In this document: piece by piece, positions 17,744 through 62,701 of the stretch
Layout of the letters: every line of letters begins with the position of its first letter
Numbering within the stretch: position 1 is the first letter of the stretch
Assembly (NCBI GenBank): GCA_016201275.1
Contig: JACQDB010000020.1
Span: forward strand, 1,443-65,442
DNA length: 64,000 nucleotides
Origin: Acidobacteriota bacterium
GTDB taxonomy: Bacteria; Acidobacteriota; Blastocatellia; UBA7656
Direction of reading: 5' to 3'
Notes under the pieces: generated by a model
The model's input: only the letters and a program-made list of their open reading frames with translations
What the model was told of the DNA's origin: nothing
Databases searched by the model: none
Program-made: the position numbers and the translations under genes

Positions 17744-20200
17744 TTACACTTCTTCGCCGCGTTTGCCGAAAAATTCTTTCAAGGCCGGATAGACATCCTC
17801 TTTTTCATCTATGCGAACGCCTATGAAGCGGTCTTGATTTTTCAAGCGGTCTTTGAAGATGGAAAGCAATGCGCCCGACGAACGCCGATAACTCAACGCG
17901 CCTTCTTCGCCAATTTCGCCATAGCCGAACAGATTACAGGTCGAAATTAATTCGTCGGCCAGTTTGATCGCCTCGTCATTGTCCGAATAATAATTGTCAC
18001 CATCGGAAAAATGAAACGGATAGATGTTCCAGTCTTTCGGCAGAAAGCGCTCCGTTATTAGATCAAGCGCCAGTTTGTAAGCCGACGACACGACTGTGCC
18101 GCCCGATTCGCCTTGCGTGAAGAATTGTTCTTCAGTGACCTCTTTGGCTTCTGTGTGATGGCTGATGAAGACGATCTTCACCTGATCGTATTTGGTCCGC
18201 AAAAACCGCACCATCCAGAAATAAAACGAGCGTGCGATATATTTCTTGAATTCGCTCATGCTGTTGTGGCTCAGTATGCCGTCAACGATGTAGTTGTGAT
18301 GATCGGCAACTTCAAAATCATAAACCTGGACGACTTCTTCAGAACGGGAAATCCTTTTTATTTTCGACACCAGCAGTTGACGATCCAGGACTTCCTGAAC
18401 GGCTAGGAAATCTTTTTCACTCGCCTTTGCGTCACGCGTGATGGTTTGCAACTGGCTGTAGGACAACGCATGAGCCGTCGGCTGGTAATAACTGTAGGTG
18501 CGCGTAGTGTTGAAAAGATGACCAAATTCATTTCGCCAATCAAACGGCATGATGAATTTGCTTCGCATGGCATTGATACCGGCTTGTTGTCGTGTTACCA
18601 GTGTGTCCAGCTTGGCGGATTTTTCCCTGCACGCAAAACCAATCTCTTCTTTGAAGCGAATCGCATCTTTGGCGTGAAGCGACAGAGCATAATAAGTTCC
18701 CGCTTTGAGAGGTTTTTCACCTAGCCTGTGCTGCTTCTGAACAATCTGGGTTATGCGGGCGCGCATTCCCCAATACGAGAGCAGATGTTTGACCTGCTTG
18801 ACCAGCATTCGACTGGATGAATTCAGCATCACGCTATGATGCGCGACCGTCCCTTCGGCATCGAATAAGCCGCGTAAAAATGCGGCGCGAACCACAGGCG
18901 ATTCCCTGTAGATCGAGCTTTCGATGTAGCGTTGCGGAGAGCGACGAGTCAGCATTGGATAATCGGCGGCTAGCCGCCGCACCAATTCAACGCTGTTGAC
19001 ATTGAGGCGTTGCCGCGAATTTTCGCTCTTCTTCAGTTTGATAATCCCGCACTTTGCAAATGCCCTCTGGAAAAGCTCTTTGTACATTTCCAGCCGGTCG
19101 AGATTTTCATCGGAGATAGACAGATAGGTTCCGTAGCTGCCAGCCTTTTTGGGAATTCGCAAGTGACCATCACCCAACAAAACGCCCGTCAGATATGCCT
19201 GTTCTGCGGTCAAAGAGGATGGCAAAGATTCCTCACGCCCGGCAATCTTTCCCCACGAATTCACCAGAATCAGTTTATCGCCTTCTTCCAGTTCATCCGC
19301 CCGCTTTTCAACAATGCGATTACTGATTTCATGGTAAACAAAAAACCGATGCGCGTCGGTAGCCTGAAATCGTCCGTCTTCCGCTTCAATAATCAACGTG
19401 CGGTTCACCGGTTTGGTAAAGGTCTCCGAAACGCTTGAAGCAGTCTTTTGATAACTGTACAAATCAACGCAGGCGACCTCGTCACCCACGCTGATTTCGG
19501 AGATGTCTTTATAAGAACCGTCGGCCATTTCAATCAGGTGACCGGCGGTAAAGCAGCCGCTGACATCCATCATTGCGATTACGACGGCGTTGGATTCAAA
19601 GCGAATCTCTTCTTCCCAGGTCTTGTAGCGCAGGTCTTCTTTTTTGAAGGCTCCGAGTTCGGCTTTGCCTTTTTCTCTGGCCTGACGTTTGATGTTTTCT
19701 AAAATGCTGCGGCGTTTATCGAGGTTCGACATGATGCCGGTGCGGCGAATCTCTGTGAACTTCGTGGTCTTGGATTCCACCGCCTGCTTGGCTTTTTCTT
19801 CAAGGAAAGGCAGATGCAAATCTTCAAAAATCAACTTGGCGATTTCATCTATCTCGACATCGGCTTCGTAATAATCCTGCCCCGCCTGATCGCCGGCCTT
19901 GTCGCCGCGCCCAGGCCCCTGCCCTTGCTGACCTTCGCGGGCAATCACGTCGCCGACCTGAGTTTTGCCATCGCCCGTGCCTACCTGTTTTTTCTTGCGA
20001 TAATCAAAGCGGAATTTATATTCATCGAGCGAGCGTATCGGCACTTTGACGACTTTTTTGCCATCGGAAAGAATGATGGATTCATTCGAGACGATGGAGC
20101 CTAGGTTCTTCTTGATCGCCTCTTTGACACGCTCTTTATGACGTTCCTGATCAATTTGACCTTTGCGTTGCAGCGACCAATCATTGCGTTGTACAGACAT
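17744..20200 (-). CDS. yeaH: YeaH/YhbH (DUF444) vWA-like protein, intein-containing (387 aa after splicing)
   Basis: DQERH..VKEAIK, DLRYKTW, MDVSG|intein|SM, ESGGT..SSAY, FSDGDN; lies between prkA and spoVR. Confidence 0.93.
18263..19555 (-). mobile_element. 431-aa intein with LAGLIDADG homing endonuclease
   Basis: Block A CFTAGH, block B ATDAHRF, LAGLIDADG motifs LTGVLLGDG and [10 protein letters not shown], block F VYDFEV, block G SHN followed by Ser+1. Confidence 0.95.
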
Positions 20201-24447: not shown

Positions 24448-25686
24448 TCAAATAATCAAGATCGAGGGAACTTCTTCGAGATGGTAAAGCCGCAGATAAA
24501 AATAGCCGATGCCACTTAGTCCCAGCATCAAGTTTGGAGTTTCGCCAGCGCCAGGAACGCCGCACGGCCACGGCAAATCATTTTTTCGATACTGTTCAAT
24601 GCCGAAATCCCCCAGCCGCTCGACGGTCTCCAACGCTTCAGGATATTGCCAAAGGCGGTGCGCGTAAAGCAGTAACTCGGCATTGCCCGTATGTCCATGA
24701 CACAACGAAAAATTGGCTTGGCTGAAATAACTTGAATTCGCCAGCGTCTTGGTGGTCGAGCGAAGGGCGGCTTCGGCTTCCTGGCGATAGCCTTCGTCAC
24801 CGGTCAATTCCCAAGCGCGCAATCGCGCCAAGCCTATGCCGGGAGCGCCGTGACACCAGGCCATTGAATAGCTCAACTCCGCATTGGCGTTAGGCATCGC
24901 TTCGCCAAAGGTACGAAAGTCAGGCCAGTTGTCCTGTTCAGCACTGAACCAATGCTGTTCATAACGGCAAGCTTGGGTGGCGGCAACTTGAAATTTCTCT
25001 TCTCCGGTGACGCCATAGAGTTCCAAAAACGCCCAGCCAATGCCCGCCGTGCCATGAGAAAACCCGGTTAGATTACGCGGCGTATTCAGGGTATTCCAAG
25101 ACCAGCCTTCATCGCTCTTCAGGGCGGTGTCAAGCAAATGATTGCCGTGTCGAATGGCCAACTCAACAAGAAAATCTTGCGGCTGTTTTTGATGAAGATA
25201 GAGCAAAGCGGGAATCGCGCCAGCGCTGCCGGAGATAACATCCAAGCCTTGCTGCATCGGATCATCTTTACTCAACTCTTCGGCGAGGCGCAGCGCCTGT
25301 TCAATTAAATATTGACTAGCAAATATTTCAGCAAGCTGAACCAAGCTATAGGCAATGCCGCTCCACCCCGAATAAAAACCGCTGCGCGCCGCTGGCGACA
25401 GTTGCTCGCAACGTGACAACGCCTGCGCGATCCCGCCTTCCGCCGTCAAGCGGTGAATTTTGTCATGGGTGAATTTATACAGGTGCGCGAGAAACAAAGC
25501 GATGCCGGCGGTGCCACTGTAGAGGTCCGCGCCATAAGCGCGATGCACCGCCATCCAGGCATTGTCGGTAAACTCCATCGAAGGCCCCAGCCAATTGCAC
25601 CGCTGCTCGTGCCATACCGCATCGCGGCACACTTTGGCACCGATAAAAGTTGCAGTTTCAAGAAAGGCTTCCTTGGTGTGATTCAT
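24448..25686 (-). CDS. LanC-type lanthionine cyclase
   Basis: LYSGTAGI, GFSHGTAG (catalytic His), WCHG and LCHG zinc ligands, LMLGLSGIG. Confidence 0.92.
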   Translation of the reverse strand: MNHTKEAFLETATFIGAKVCRDAVWHEQRCNWLGPSMEFTDNAWMAVHRAYGADLYSGTAGIALFLAHLYKFTHDKIHRLTAEGGIAQALSRCEQLSPAARSGFYSGWSGIAYSLVQLAEIFASQYLIEQALRLAEELSKDDPMQQGLDVISGSAGAIPALLYLHQKQPQDFLVELAIRHGNHLLDTALKSDEGWSWNTLNTPRNLTGFSHGTAGIGWAFLELYGVTGEEKFQVAATQACRYEQHWFSAEQDNWPDFRTFGEAMPNANAELSYSMAWCHGAPGIGLARLRAWELTGDEGYRQEAEAALRSTTKTLANSSYFSQANFSLCHGHTGNAELLLYAHRLWQYPEALETVERLGDFGIEQYRKNDLPWPCGVPGAGETPNLMLGLSGIGYFYLRLYHLEEVPSILII

Positions 25687-26714
25687 AGTTGGTCAATTCG
25701 CGATTCCGGGAAATCAAAATAATCTTGGGAGCCAGGATTCAAGTACGGATGGTCTAGCGACAAGCCGTGATGAGCAAATTGGGCGCGGACTTCCTGCAAG
25801 CGTTTGACCTCTGGAAGCACGCCTTTTTCATACGCCTGCCACACGCCTTCGGCAAAAATGCGGCACCGATGCTGCCCAAAACTTTCCCCGTTGCCGGGCT
25901 CTTCGGCAAGTCCCAGTCCGTAAGCTAAGCGTTTCGTAAACAGCGGCGTGTCCGTGCCTAGATAGTCTTTAATCAAGGGGTGAAGGTCGGCTAGCAAGGC
26001 GACGGTGATTTTATAAAAGCGCTTGCCCACGTACAGAACAGCGGCATCCGAGCGTTGAAAAAATGAGCGATTGGTCAAGGTCTTGAAGCGAAACGGTATC
26101 TGAAAGCGATTGAGTTCCTGCGTGATGAAGCGTACTAACTTGGCAGCCCCAGCCTGCTTGATATGCCAATAAAATCGCACGATTTGATAATCATCCTGTT
26201 GATCGGGAATGGATTCACTGAAGGCAAAATAGAAGCCCGGCTGCATGGTCTGCGATTCTTTCGGCGCGAATAAACTGATGTTAGCGCCTTCACGCGGCGG
26301 CACTCCCGGCCCTTCGTGAGAGACAAACTCCCCCGGCCACAACAATCGGGTGCGCCCGTTTTTGTGCGCGACAATTTGACCGGATGGCAGCAAACGAAAA
26401 GTTTGCCAACCGGCGTCCCAATGCTCGCGGCTCATATTGGAAGCCGCGAGTTCACCCAATAGATTATCATCAGCGGTTTGCTCCGACGGCTGCATCGGCT
26501 GCACCTCGCCGGTGAATTTTCTACAATAGCAATGCTGATAGAGTTGCTGTGCCAGTTGCGCGACCAAGGGATTCGGGGCGGGGAAAATCGGCAACTGCGT
26601 CATCGTCCGTTCCGATGCCGAGAAGGTTTCACCCGCCAATGAGAAAGTAGTTGCGGAAAGAATCTTTATGGCGCGCAAAATTTTCACATACTGTTTTTGG
26701 GCTACATCTTTCAT
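25683..26714 (-). CDS. HopA1-domain protein, LanY-like phosphoSer/Thr lyase
   Basis: RFYWH, PFRFK, RSDAAVLYV, PLFTK.L..GLGLAEEP, SFGQHRC; overlaps the lanC start. Confidence 0.85.
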   Translation of the reverse strand: MKDVAQKQYVKILRAIKILSATTFSLAGETFSASERTMTQLPIFPAPNPLVAQLAQQLYQHCYCRKFTGEVQPMQPSEQTADDNLLGELAASNMSREHWDAGWQTFRLLPSGQIVAHKNGRTRLLWPGEFVSHEGPGVPPREGANISLFAPKESQTMQPGFYFAFSESIPDQQDDYQIVRFYWHIKQAGAAKLVRFITQELNRFQIPFRFKTLTNRSFFQRSDAAVLYVGKRFYKITVALLADLHPLIKDYLGTDTPLFTKRLAYGLGLAEEPGNGESFGQHRCRIFAEGVWQAYEKGVLPEVKRLQEVRAQFAHHGLSLDHPYLNPGSQDYFDFPESRIDQL

Positions 26715-26730
26715 AAGTCGTAGGTCGCTT

Positions 26731-27831
26731 TCACATCTCCAATAAATCACTGATGGCTTCTTGCGGACTCTTCAAAATGTTCATGCTCACTTGCAACATA
26801 TAGAGAACCGGAAGAGTGATATGCGGTGAATACTGCAAATACTCGTAGGCCGTTTGAATCATGCGCGCCGCGCCAAATTTCACGCAGCGTTCCAGCAAGT
26901 TGCGCCTTTGCTCGACAGCAATCTGCCGGGTCTCTATATAGGTTTTCCAAAAGGCATGAATCGCCGGTAACATCGCTTCAAGGGGAAACTGCGCCATCTC
27001 GATGAGTTGTGCAGGCGCGGCGCGTGTCTCCATAGGAATAGACATGATCCAAAAGGCCAGATAGGCTTGAAGAATCGCGCCGACATCCCAACACGCATCG
27101 CCAATGTCAGCGAGTTCCCAATCCACCACCTTAAAATCCAAATCCGCCGCGCCCTGCTGACCGGCAAAGACCATGCAATTATCCCATTTCATGTCCCCGT
27201 GAATGAGGCTGTCAAATTGCCATTGGTCGCGTATATCATCAAGCGCCTGATGAAACTCAGGATATTTTTGCACGATGTTCAGGAGCTCCGAATTGCCCGC
27301 GCTCAGAGCATTGAACAACTGTGCGCGTTGTTGGTTGGCAGACAAAATCCAGGGAACCTGTTTGGGAAAGACTGAATTTTGCACCGCGTCATTGAGGCTG
27401 GAGATCGTCTGATGATGATAGGTTCCTAACGCTTGACCCAGTTTCTCGGCAATGGCGACCGGAAACTTGCCCAGCCGACGTTGATGCTCCGACAGGTTTT
27501 CGCCTTCCTGCAACAACTCCGTCACCAGTATGTGGCGCGCTGAATCATAAAGAAAATACTTGGGCATCAGCGCCGCCAGAGGAGCAAGCTCGGCCTCCTG
27601 TTGCGCCAGTTGGTAACAGGTCGCCTCGCGTTGCAAGGTCGCAATCGCCAGCGGCTCCCAGTTCTGAATCTGCTTGAGAAAAAAACTTTGCTGCTGATGG
27701 CGAATGATTTTGAAATTGCGGTTGCGCCGCGTCACCTCGACAATCATTAGATCACCATCCACAACGGATTGAGTAGAAACGAGTCCTTTATCAATCAGGT
27801 AGTAGGAGAGGTTGGCAGGTGTAATCATCAT
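26731..27831 (-). CDS. APH-family phosphotransferase, LanK-like Ser/Thr kinase
   Basis: RRNRNF, FLKQ, RE, LIHGDMKWDN, VDWE, GDACWDVG. Confidence 0.88.
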   Translation of the reverse strand: MMITPANLSYYLIDKGLVSTQSVVDGDLMIVEVTRRNRNFKIIRHQQQSFFLKQIQNWEPLAIATLQREATCYQLAQQEAELAPLAALMPKYFLYDSARHILVTELLQEGENLSEHQRRLGKFPVAIAEKLGQALGTYHHQTISSLNDAVQNSVFPKQVPWILSANQQRAQLFNALSAGNSELLNIVQKYPEFHQALDDIRDQWQFDSLIHGDMKWDNCMVFAGQQGAADLDFKVVDWELADIGDACWDVGAILQAYLAFWIMSIPMETRAAPAQLIEMAQFPLEAMLPAIHAFWKTYIETRQIAVEQRRNLLERCVKFGAARMIQTAYEYLQYSPHITLPVLYMLQVSMNILKSPQEAISDLLEM

Positions 27832-27998: not shown

Positions 27999-29051
27999 TT
28001 ATTGATTAATGGGACCTCCTCCCGGTCCGCAAGCCAACGTCACGCCGCAAGCTATGCTTTGCGGGCCGCAAGCCAAACCGGTCGGGCAGGCAACGCCGCC
28101 GGAAACCGGAGGACAATGCACCCCTGGCAACGTCGGACAGTGCGCCGTCTGCAAGTTACAGATTATGGGGTTGGTCGGATGACAAATAATCTGATGCGAC
28201 GGACACACCGGGGTCGGACACGCCGGAGTCGGTGGATGACACACAGGAGGATGTGTGCATAAAGGCGTCGGACAGCCATGCACAGGCGTCAGTGGCGGAC
28301 AGCATAGCGAAGGCGCTACATGAGTTGGGCAACACAGCGTCGGCCCAGTCGGACAGCCAAGTAGTGGCGTATGCGGCGGACAACCGTGCAACGGCGTATG
28401 CGGCGGACAACCATGCAAGGGGGTAAACGGCGGACAGCCATGGAATGGCGTAAATGGCGGACAGCCAAACTGTGGCGTATGCGGCGGACAGCCATGCAAG
28501 GGTGTGAATGGCGGACACAGCACCGGCGGAGTGGGACAGCCGTGGAATGGTGTATGCAGACAACCCGGAGGTAAGGTTACCGGCGGACAGCCATGCAATG
28601 GACTCGGAGGCGGACATTCAATTTGTGAAACGCAAATATGCCCTACCGATGGGCAATGCGCGGGTTGCGTCGGACACAAGATAGTTGGGGGTGGAATCGG
28701 CGCAGCCGCTGCCTGTGCCGCCGCCTGGGCAATCGGCCCTTCAAAAAATTTGGCCTTGGTGCGCTGTGGTCCAGCCTTGCCGTGAATGACTTCAGCATCT
28801 TGCTTAATCCACACAAAGCTTTCCCCAAGAGGTGACTGTTCTTTGGGTACGTCTTCTTCATGAAGAATCGCATCATCGGGAATCTCTACGTAGCTGCTGA
28901 GGGTGGCGTCGAAATACAACCGCGTATGTTCCGCTTCTGATGATTCGCCCAGATACCCTCGCAACAACAACGTATCGGGAGGAGAATCGGGATTCTTCAC
29001 AATCTTAGAGACGAAATTTTCCTTTCGTGGTTTTGTTTTACGATCTGCCAT
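27999..29051 (-). CDS. Putative giant RiPP precursor: 122-aa Cys-free N-domain plus 228-aa Pro/Cys/Thr/His-rich core
   Basis: AGGAGA RBS before ATG 29051; core has 31 Cys and 31 Ser/Thr in matched order; directly upstream of kinase, lyase and cyclase genes. Confidence 0.85.
   Translation of the reverse strand: MADRKTKPRKENFVSKIVKNPDSPPDTLLLRGYLGESSEAEHTRLYFDATLSSYVEIPDDAILHEEDVPKEQSPLGESFVWIKQDAEVIHGKAGPQRTKAKFFEGPIAQAAAQAAAAPIPPPTILCPTQPAHCPSVGHICVSQIECPPPSPLHGCPPVTLPPGCLHTPFHGCPTPPVLCPPFTPLHGCPPHTPQFGCPPFTPFHGCPPFTPLHGCPPHTPLHGCPPHTPLLGCPTGPTLCCPTHVAPSLCCPPLTPVHGCPTPLCTHPPVCHPPTPACPTPVCPSHQIICHPTNPIICNLQTAHCPTLPGVHCPPVSGGVACPTGLACGPQSIACGVTLACGPGGGPINQ
28356..28517 (-). repeat. 27-bp x6 coding tandem repeat, CPP(F/H)TPxxG
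   Basis: CPPFTPLHG CPPHTPQFG CPPFTPFHG CPPFTPLHG CPPHTPLHG CPPHTPLLG. Confidence 0.95.
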
Positions 29052-29240: not shown

Positions 29241-29269
29241 ATATTATAAACCCTTAAATCAAATGTCAA
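29241..29269 (-). promoter_or_regulatory. Near-consensus sigma70 promoter for the RiPP operon
   Basis: TTGACA-N17-TAATAT (overlapping TATAAT at N15), about 190 bp upstream of the ATG. Confidence 0.6.
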
Positions 29270-60734: not shown

Positions 60735-60833
60735 TTAAACAATCGTCATGCCATCATCAACAACTATCGCTTGACCTGCGATGTAGTTTGAAGCGTCAGT
60801 CGCTAAAAACACTGCTACGCCTTTTCAACTCGC
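60735..60833 (-). pseudogene. Stranded copy of the SDR gene 3' end (older relic)
   Basis: Aligns to 63426-63523 with 4 amino-acid changes and a 1-nt insertion. Confidence 0.9.
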
Positions 60834-62060
60834 TTGGCGTATCTTTTCTTTTTCATCAACCAATTCTATCTTTGAATATTTATGACTTTGCAACCAATCC
60901 TCTATCAACAAATCGTAAGCATCTATGACCAGCAAGCTCTCGTCTTCTTCCGGCGCGAAAAGATAATCGCTCTGCCTGTGGGTTCTCACCAAGATCATCA
61001 AAGCGCATTTTTTAGATTTGCTCGCGGCAATCAATTTGCTCTTGGCATCTTCCAAGTCTTCGCCGCTCTTTTGCACTCGCACAGCAACCGGACGATGATT
61101 CACATATAACTTGAGAAAACCGTCAATGCCGTTGTTGCGCTCAACCGGAATCGCCTCAAGAGTCTTCAGTATCGCTCGTTCATAATCTGATTTTTCGAGA
61201 TAGCTTTCTTCGCCCACTGTCAAAAGATGCGACTCTGTTTTAATCGGTTCCAGCAGTCTTCGCTCTGCCAACTGCACGGCTTCGGCTGATATATCAAACC
61301 CTAAATAATTTCGCTCAAGCAATTTTGCGGCAATCAGCGTAGTGCCGCTGCCGCAAAATGGATCAAGCACACAGTCGCCTTTGTCTGTGGCTATTTCAAC
61401 GATGCGCTCAAGCAATAAAATAGGCTTCTGCGTTGGGTAGCCAACACGCTCTTTGGCTTTCGGATTCAAGAAAGGGATATTCCAGACATCAGAAAATGGA
61501 ACGCCTCTCTTTTCTTTGCCGGTCACGGTGTTGCCATCTTCGTCGCGTTGATAAATAGCCTTGCCGGATTCGTTCCGAACTCTGGCTTGCAGAATTTGAT
61601 CTACATTGGTGGTCGGCGAATAGTCTGTGTACCGTGTGTTGAATTTAAAATTTTCCGTCTTGCTGTAAAAGAAAATCGTTTGATGTGCGTTCAGTAATCC
61701 TTTTTTTGCATTAGACCAACGCTTGTATGCCCAAATGATTTCGCTTTGAAAATTCTCGCTGCCAAACACTTCATCCAACAAAACGCGCAAGTGATGCGAC
61801 GCAGATTTATCGCAGTGTAAAAACAGGCTCCCATCATTTTTGAGAAGCCTACGGCACTCTGTAAGCACTTCACGCAGAAACGCAAGGTAGTCGGTGAGCG
61901 AATCCCAACGGTCTGCGAAACTGTACTCTGTGGCATTGTCTCGCGTTCGCAACGAGTGCGACTTTTGCGTAAAGAATGGCGGGTCGAGATAAACAAGCTG
62001 CACGCTCGCGTCGTCAAGCTTCGGCAAATTCACCAGACAGTCCCCGTGTAAAATGCTCAT
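60825..62060 (-). CDS. Beta-class N4/N6 DNA methyltransferase with C-terminal extension
   Basis: DPPF (motif IV) precedes YPTQKP and DPFCGSGTT (motif I). Confidence 0.93.
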   Translation of the reverse strand: MSILHGDCLVNLPKLDDASVQLVYLDPPFFTQKSHSLRTRDNATEYSFADRWDSLTDYLAFLREVLTECRRLLKNDGSLFLHCDKSASHHLRVLLDEVFGSENFQSEIIWAYKRWSNAKKGLLNAHQTIFFYSKTENFKFNTRYTDYSPTTNVDQILQARVRNESGKAIYQRDEDGNTVTGKEKRGVPFSDVWNIPFLNPKAKERVGYPTQKPILLLERIVEIATDKGDCVLDPFCGSGTTLIAAKLLERNYLGFDISAEAVQLAERRLLEPIKTESHLLTVGEESYLEKSDYERAILKTLEAIPVERNNGIDGFLKLYVNHRPVAVRVQKSGEDLEDAKSKLIAASKSKKCALMILVRTHRQSDYLFAPEEDESLLVIDAYDLLIEDWLQSHKYSKIELVDEKEKIRQAS

Positions 62061-62701
62061 TGTTTCCCCTGATTTTTATTGCCTTCAGCTATTTCAAGCA
62101 GTATGGCTTTCAGATCAATTTTCGTGCGTTTGCGAAGATAATTCCAAGCTTCGTCACCCGCAAAATATTCTCCACCGACTCCGGCGTAGAGTGTTTTCAG
62201 GGTCTCCTGAATCCTACGCGATTGCTCTCGGTTCGGATAGAAAAACATCAGGCGAATCGGTTTGAAGCCGTTTGCTTTGATGGCTTTTATCCGAGTGTGT
62301 TCTTTGGTTATGTGGTCTCCATCTGTCGTTGCGTCTCGCCATTTAATTTCAACTGCGTCTTTACCAATCAAGCAATCTATTTCAAATTGCTTTGGCTTTT
62401 GTCCCAAGGTGTTTTCAACTTGCGTTCTTCTTGCATCAGGGAATTTTTCTTTGATACACAGCAAAGCTGCATATTCCAAAAACTTCCCTGCATAGTTGTA
62501 CAGAAATCGTCCTTTGTTTTGATAGCTATCAATGAGTGCGCCTTCTTCATCGGATATGCCCAAAACTTGATAGATGAGATAGTGCGACAGATCATCTTTT
62601 TTCATCTCATCAATTCGTAATGCAATCTTTCTCTCAAGTTCATTCGCATACTTATCAGCGAGTCTGCGGATAGATTCTTTGATTGAAATTTCGTTGGTCA
62701 T
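62057..62701 (-). CDS. Type II restriction endonuclease, ApaLI-like family
   Basis: YQNKGRFLY.YAG.FLE, EIDC...EIKWRDATTDGDH; overlaps the MTase start (ATGA). Confidence 0.8.
   Translation of the reverse strand: MTNEISIKESIRRLADKYANELERKIALRIDEMKKDDLSHYLIYQVLGISDEEGALIDSYQNKGRFLYNYAGKFLEYAALLCIKEKFPDARRTQVENTLGQKPKQFEIDCLIGKDAVEIKWRDATTDGDHITKEHTRIKAIKANGFKPIRLMFFYPNREQSRRIQETLKTLYAGVGGEYFAGDEAWNYLRKRTKIDLKAILLEIAEGNKNQGKQ

Follow-up and report, generated by a model that had tools for sequence, protein, structure and literature searches.

A putative lanthionine-forming cassette of four genes lies on the minus strand of a 64,000-nucleotide stretch of contig JACQDB010000020.1 from an Acidobacteriota bacterium (hereafter, the window). 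Its genes follow each other in the order of a 350-residue precursor open reading frame (ORF; 27999-29051), an APH kinase (26731-27831), a HopA1-domain protein (25683-26714), and LanC (24448-25686). The stop codon of the HopA1-domain gene, a predicted lyase, overlaps the start of the LanC gene, and the remaining intergenic gaps in the cassette measure 16 and 167 bases. We propose, with a probability of roughly two in three, that this class Vb-type cassette builds some 31 small (methyl)lanthionine rings into the 350-residue protein, and that the core is then probably cleaved off its leader.

The LanA-like precursor starts at an ATG with AGGAGA upstream and comprises a folded leader, a recognition motif, an Ala/Gln linker, a 31-Cys core, and a Gly-rich tail. 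The core (T123-C341; 28029-28685, minus strand) contains 24 Thr, seven Ser, and 31 Cys, about 64 Pro, and neither Lys nor Arg. When Ser/Thr and Cys are paired in order, rings of four to eight residues run from T123-C126 to T338-C341 and overlap solely at two Cys-Cys sites. Exactly one Ser/Thr is present in 26 of the 28 scored Cys-to-Cys intervals, compared to a maximum of 21 in 10,000 shuffles, and among 94,851 six-frame genome segments none besides this core showed that rate over more than eight scored intervals. Given that the 31 Cys alternate with 31 Ser/Thr beside ring-forming enzymes, these enzymes likely stitch the whole protein, a substrate far larger than the short peptides that they have been known to modify. 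The tail beyond the last Cys occupies positions 27999-28028 (minus strand), and at least three Gly follow the last Cys in 77 of 151 homologous cores.

The kinase, a LanK-type APH Ser/Thr kinase of 366 residues, scores 29 bits with PF01636 (cut-off 23.2), and its only match in the PDB is chain A of the lexapeptide dehydratase complex LxmKY (9dk1_A, E = 1.4e-5); residues K53, E69, D213, N218, and D237 are invariant in all 47 homologous stretches. Chain B of the same complex is the best PDB match (E = 4.5e-11) of the 343-residue LanY-type (HopA1-like) phospho-Ser/Thr lyase, which scores 140 bits with PF17914. Here, R180, K211, and R221 are invariant in 43 of 43 homologous stretches and Y228 is found in 41 of them, and their spacing equals that reported for the catalytic residues R187, K219, R229, and Y236 of CaoY (PMC9486802). 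The stand-alone zinc-type cyclase (412 residues; PF05147, 231 bits) carries the motifs GFSHG (H211), WCHG (C278), and LCHG (C329 and H330), which align with the corresponding motifs of NisC and LicM2. In line with an initial annotation of this DNA, which credited LanC with an intact catalytic His and Zn ligands, D149, H211, R258, C278, C329, and H330 are each invariant in 39 of 39 aligned homologous stretches. Judged by these signatures, the three proteins supply the kinase, lyase, and zinc cyclase functions.

The alternation of Ser/Thr and Cys is found throughout the family. Cores were analyzed for 151 of 181 homologues, the other 30 having been excluded with fewer than 100 residues or fewer than eight Cys. 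Of the 3,791 Cys-to-Cys intervals in these cores, 78.9% hold exactly one Ser/Thr, against 38.8% when the sequences are shuffled with Cys fixed, and intervals without any Ser/Thr account for 2.2% rather than 35%. Ten control residue sets yielded 24-43% single-occupancy intervals. Repeats do not account for the alternation, since 57 non-repetitive cores retain 75.9% single-Ser/Thr intervals (39.1% when shuffled). A Ser/Thr precedes the first Cys in all 151 cores, and where an interval holds a single Ser/Thr, the next Cys nearly always follows it at a distance of 3-6. The most frequent four-residue units are TPLC, TPAC, and TPFC; ring B of nisin is TPGC. Relatives of the precursor are as long as 1,377 residues and contain up to 144 Cys.

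To survey the genes around these precursors, we assembled 106 metagenome loci (numbered L) with a degenerate DNA pattern for the leader, all confirmed by tblastn, and added three genome loci. Alignment-based scans gave no usable conserved stretch, and because the DNA pattern matches only about 111 of 200 family proteins, the family is sampled unevenly. The kinase is the next gene in 37 of the 45 complete precursors for which at least 600 bases downstream were available, and all 41 loci holding the three enzymes show the gene order kinase, lyase, LanC; a lyase-LanC fusion occurs in eight loci. A simple script called 612 ORFs in the 50 loci that measured 5 kb or more, and Pfam was searched at 1e-9 with 204 of 219 neighbor representatives (15 short ORFs omitted) and six others, 20 of which were rescanned at 0.01. 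No LanD flavoprotein or methyltransferase families were found among these scanned neighbors. Named records of the family come from Acidobacteriota and Pirellulaceae, and for the enzymes also from Gemmatimonadota. Tandem precursor genes are present in L076 and L105, and two further candidate precursors, both short and Cys-poor, stand beside the same enzymes: one at L019:3778-4299 (minus strand; 173 residues, two Cys) and one at L015:8453-8809 (plus strand), an ORF of about 80 residues without the beta domain described below.

The eight precursors that are not followed by a kinase include a short divergent precursor (L052), a probable frameshift (L086), and three orphan cores to which we return below (L059, L077, and L095). 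In the remaining three (L054, L055, and L088), and in L085, which stands outside the 45 with 539 bases downstream only, the Cys-rich cores hold almost no Ser/Thr between their Cys, and a ThiF-like gene comes next. The leader of these ThiF-linked loci is fused to poly-(Cys-Pro) or Cys/Pro/His cores, and L054 (6075-10170, minus strand) encodes a full ThiF-YcaO followed by a nitroreductase. From their sequences, the four loci likely represent a poly-thiazole system; their leaders fall into two separate groups of a tree with a weak backbone. A class I version exists at L130:6079-11511 (plus strand; genome G665), where a divergent leader and an alternating 32-Cys core are followed by LanC and LanB. 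The same genome also carries short-leader and full-leader class Vb cassettes and a LanM cluster. With alternating cores beside the kinase and Ser/Thr-poor cores beside ThiF(-YcaO), core make-up follows the neighboring chemistry and, as these gene neighborhoods indicate, the leader is used by three machineries, namely class Vb, LanB/LanC, and ThiF(-YcaO).

The conserved leader spans residues 1-107 and has no Pfam or NCBIfam match. Residues 11-92 (28776-29021, minus strand) are predicted by AlphaFold2 to fold into a small beta-barrel of one short helix and six strands, with a predicted local distance difference test score (pLDDT) of 83-93 over residues 11-90, while residues 94-112 of the monomer model are disordered and the FFEGPI region has low pLDDT. 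Fold searches with this model gave no clear match, Sm/Hfq-, SH3-, and OB-like small beta-barrels included: the best hit was to an Hfq chain (Z = 3.1, 40 residues at 1.7 Å) and none had a Z of at least 5; Foldseek gave no match at E 0.001, and all ESM Atlas matches stayed under 0.9. The FFEGPI motif (residues 102-107; 28731-28748, minus strand), a likely enzyme-docking element, is of a kind that 150 of the 151 long homologues share, and short-leader precursors begin with a related motif. In 10 of 11 scanned Thermoanaerobaculia loci, cores of 41-86 Cys are headed by a short EGPLTQ-type motif alone, and at L001:6515-8759 (plus strand) the beta domain is encoded upstream in an ORF of its own, whereas the core of about 600 residues and 86 Cys opens with the short motif alone. 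Both arrangements suggest that the motif, rather than the beta domain, is the enzyme-docking site.

According to the established chemistry of class V, Ser/Thr residues receive phosphate from LanK, lose it again through LanY to become dehydroalanine or dehydrobutyrine, and are then joined to Cys thiols by LanC. At the window locus, the enzymes would dock on the FFEGPI motif of the precursor, and each Cys would close on a Ser/Thr located 3-7 residues N-terminal of it, so that 27 rings would stand apart and each of the two Cys-Cys sites would hold an overlapping pair. If every site were converted, 31 waters would be lost, or about 558 Da from 36,533 Da. A protease encoded elsewhere would then probably free the ringed core from the folded leader. 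That ring-forming chemistry of this kind acts on the precursor appears highly probable to us from the sequences at hand.

Several points weigh against this reading. The chemistry is deduced from homology and sequence pattern, and homologues share descent, so that family statistics are not independent samples. The kinase scores 100.1 bits with the LxmK equivalog NF038156, which is below the cut-off of 315. Pro makes up about 26% of the core and may block modification at some sites. Some subfamilies (L021, L026, L058, and L087) contain about two Ser/Thr per Cys, and one-to-one pairing is therefore not universal. The orphan cores of L059, L077, and L095 alternate and have no kinase gene directly after them. 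With respect to release of the core, no recurring exporter was detected among the scanned neighbors of the 50 loci, and 31 of the 41 full cassettes are without a directly adjacent protease, although some of them end at contig edges. A papain-like protease occurs in part of the family; the loci bearing it that could be placed in the tree fall in one well-supported clade, inside which L020, L094, and L129 are without the protease, and a papain-like query found no match in the host genome.

The same chemistry could end in a product that is never cleaved, that is, a thioether-stitched intracellular protein that keeps its folded N-terminal domain for assembly or anchoring. We hold this outcome to be possible, if somewhat doubtful. 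It would agree with the absence of protease and exporter from the window locus and from most of the 41 full cassettes, and with cores of up to 144 Cys. The beta domain is also strongly conserved though ten giant cores from Thermoanaerobaculia carry the short motif alone, so it may serve a purpose other than enzyme docking. However, protease genes are missing near about one third of lanthipeptide clusters (PMC8960859), and the lack of one here is thus no proof of an uncleaved product. The initial annotation, which suggested that the product may stay uncleaved, had named a consistent protease or exporter in homologous clusters as an observation that would refute it; neither is consistent, with a directly adjacent protease in the same direction in only 10 of the 41 full cassettes, and no recurrent exporter. 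Seven of the ten have the papain-like protease, one has an S8-cluster gene (L098), and two have a neighboring LanM cluster with a C39-ABC transporter (L002 and L004). This transporter was rejected as the exporter of the family, as it follows a separate LanM gene and is limited to these two related loci. Counting all loci, 11 have a papain-like C1 protease immediately upstream of the precursor, with an AraC regulator ahead of the protease (L030, L040, L042, L045, L065, L078, L083, L084, L090, L093, and L097), so that in one clade a protease does stand in line with its precursor. Moreover, the same domain heads cores of three chemistries, as a disposable leader would. We consider the chances that a protease encoded elsewhere releases the core from the folded leader to be about even.

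The papain-linked precursors are among the largest (about 870-1,380 residues where complete), which would also suit a long core that serves as a multi-unit precursor and is cut after modification into many peptides of one or two rings. Cys-free spacers of at least 16 residues in 99 of the 151 cores and repeats in the window core, CPPHTPLHG among them, point in the same direction. Nevertheless, such an arrangement is improbable, given that the window core has no Cys-free gap of more than nine residues between its first and last Cys, that the 0-3 residues lying between its rings are mostly Pro and leave little to cut, and that the window locus is without a protease. Even less credible, and in our opinion very unlikely, is a core that is sparsely or not modified and holds metal by free Cys and His in the manner of a metallothionein. 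The window core does contain 20 His next to its 31 Cys, and its His fraction is the highest of the 151 cores (range 0-8.2%), but ten cores have no His at all, Cys spacings of 1-3 make up just 108 of 4,048 across the family, and metal binding would explain neither why Ser/Thr and Cys alternate so strictly nor why the cyclase residues are invariant. The metal-binding product considered by the initial annotation is disfavored by these counts as far as Cys is concerned, and binding via Cys is unlikely if the thiols are consumed in rings. A His-plus-thioether metal site is possible in the window member.

More than 240 class Vb-type clusters have reportedly been found by Pei and colleagues (JACS, 2022). 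Class V is defined by stand-alone LanK (PF01636) and LanY (PF17914), and its subclass Vb uses LanC and forms (methyl)lanthionine only (PMC12291118). Since LanK and LanY with LanC and without LanD match this published definition, the enzyme set that the initial annotation called a hybrid is class Vb and not new. Based on sequence, the cassette matches class Vb, to which the SmoA/SmoC system belongs, by every tested feature: it has the stand-alone PF01636 kinase, the PF17914 lyase, and LanC, and it has no LanD, no LanX, and no C-terminal Cys for aminovinyl-methylcysteine (AviMeCys). As the initial annotation also held, no aminovinyl-cysteine is expected: the precursor terminates in GPGGGPINQ, with Gln as the last residue, and no LanD is present at the locus. 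As of 2024, mSmoA was the sole member of class Vb, with three rings, two of which overlap (PMC11186320); SmoC and SpcC are described in PMC12328550. In contrast to mSmoA, the window substrate is 350 residues long and has a folded leader, most of its roughly 31 predicted rings do not overlap, and its family has been seen in Acidobacteriota, Planctomycetota, and metagenomes.

Class Va systems (lexapeptide LxmKY, cacaoidin CaoKY, pristinin, and triantimycins) resemble the window cassette in their split kinase/lyase dehydratase, in 9dk1 as the best PDB match for both proteins, and in the catalytic residues of CaoY. They differ in that class Va combines LanK, LanY, LanD, and LanX and has no LanC; the window cassette has LanC, is without LanD, LanX or a second kinase-like gene, and AviMeCys, and carries a leader unlike the short type-A leaders. 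The same trio of genes, HopA1-LanC fusions included, is known from the HopA1-phosphotransferase-LanC clusters of Eyles and colleagues (2021), whose survey of short peptides had LanC close by or fused in for 20% of HopA1-like proteins; FFEGP and FLEGP are absent from the two supplements of this survey that were searched (PMC8153245). The initial annotation had further described the locus as a three-protein equivalent of class IV. The logic of kinase, lyase, and zinc cyclase is indeed shared with LanL, but the window has three genes, its APH and HopA1 folds are not LanL domains, and its cyclase is nearer to LanM than to LanL: the best score was obtained with the cyclase half of LanM (TIGR03897, 313 bits, above the cut-off, at model positions 544-930 only), compared to 135 bits for LanL (NF038150 requires at least 650). 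Class II is set apart by the LanM dehydratase domain, PF13575, to which the Pfam search found no match at the locus.

Leaders of the nitrile hydratase leader peptide (NHLP) type are likewise long and folded and serve more than one kind of modifying enzyme (PMC12537861), and very long Cys-repeat precursors exist in another class of RiPPs, peptides that are made on ribosomes and modified after translation (PMC12452194). The window leader differs from NHLP in having no match to a Pfam leader family and in its predicted small beta-barrel. NHLP leaders are helical and end in a double-Gly site. In our literature search, for which most subscription journals were beyond reach, we found no report of long class Vb precursors or of this leader. 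While the enzyme set is already known, what is new is a substrate of protein size in which Ser/Thr and Cys strictly alternate and whose folded leader is portable.

If the proposed ring formation is correct, a single chain receives 31 rings from class Vb enzymes in this case and as many as about 140 in relatives. How processive lanthionine synthesis is, and in which direction it runs, would become testable on a scale that is unprecedented among the reports found, and the three enzymes would offer a small tool for stapling long proteins. The leader constitutes a large unannotated family with 1,695 relatives among 50%-identity representatives and also marks class I and YcaO clusters. It thereby provides a handle for mining RiPPs missed by short-peptide filters (fewer than 110 residues in one survey); two surveys, one of them PMC8153245, were limited to short peptides. 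As a tentative and rather speculative extension, soil bacteria might produce “lanthiproteins” of 250-1,400 residues with tens to more than 100 consecutive thioether rings. These would remain attached to a folded leader exchanged between the machineries of class Vb, class I (LanB/LanC), and YcaO, and would act not as a small antibiotic but as a structural or ligand-binding material resembling a polymer.

Pfam and NCBIfam profile searches of the window proteins identified a tetratricopeptide repeat (TPR) protein, a His phosphatase, and truB at the flanks of the cassette. They found no decarboxylase, protease, or exporter beside it, and the initial annotation was right to report neither LanB, LanM, methyltransferase, peptidase, nor ABC transporter there. 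In two of 19 TPR loci of relatives (L134 and L135, from the same family as the host), the His phosphatase and truB come directly after the TPR gene; the leader is absent from all 19 loci examined. The contiguity of the three genes in L134 and L135 marks the four-gene cassette as an insertion, and the same synteny rules out the His phosphatase, TPR protein, and truB as cassette members. The distribution of the cassette is patchy: HopA1 scores above the cut-off in two of 52 other genomes of the host’s family, and the same two genomes carry the leader. The leader is present in two of 300 genomes sampled from the host’s class and absent from 400 other genomes sampled from its phylum. One relative has a second HopA1-family gene (G105:C7:201062-201568, plus strand) apart from its leader-bearing cassette. 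The host genome (98.7% complete) contains one HopA1 gene, one LanC-like gene, one copy of the leader, two flavoproteins, both on other contigs than the cassette, and one short C39-like ORF without fusion to an ABC transporter. Searching this genome by leader, and by motif plus alternation scan, yielded no further substrates.

A sigma-70-like site (TTGACA-17-TAATAT; 29241-29269, minus strand) about 190 bases upstream of the precursor is a weak lead, as three such sites were found with 4.4 expected, which is not above chance; promoter and terminator scans at the locus were at chance level. Elsewhere in the window, the DUF444 (YeaH-like) gene of a prkA-yeaH-spoVR set (17744-20200, minus strand) harbors an intein with a LAGLIDADG domain, and a lower-GC stretch at 60825-62701 (minus strand) encodes a DNA methylase paired with an ApaLI-like restriction endonuclease.

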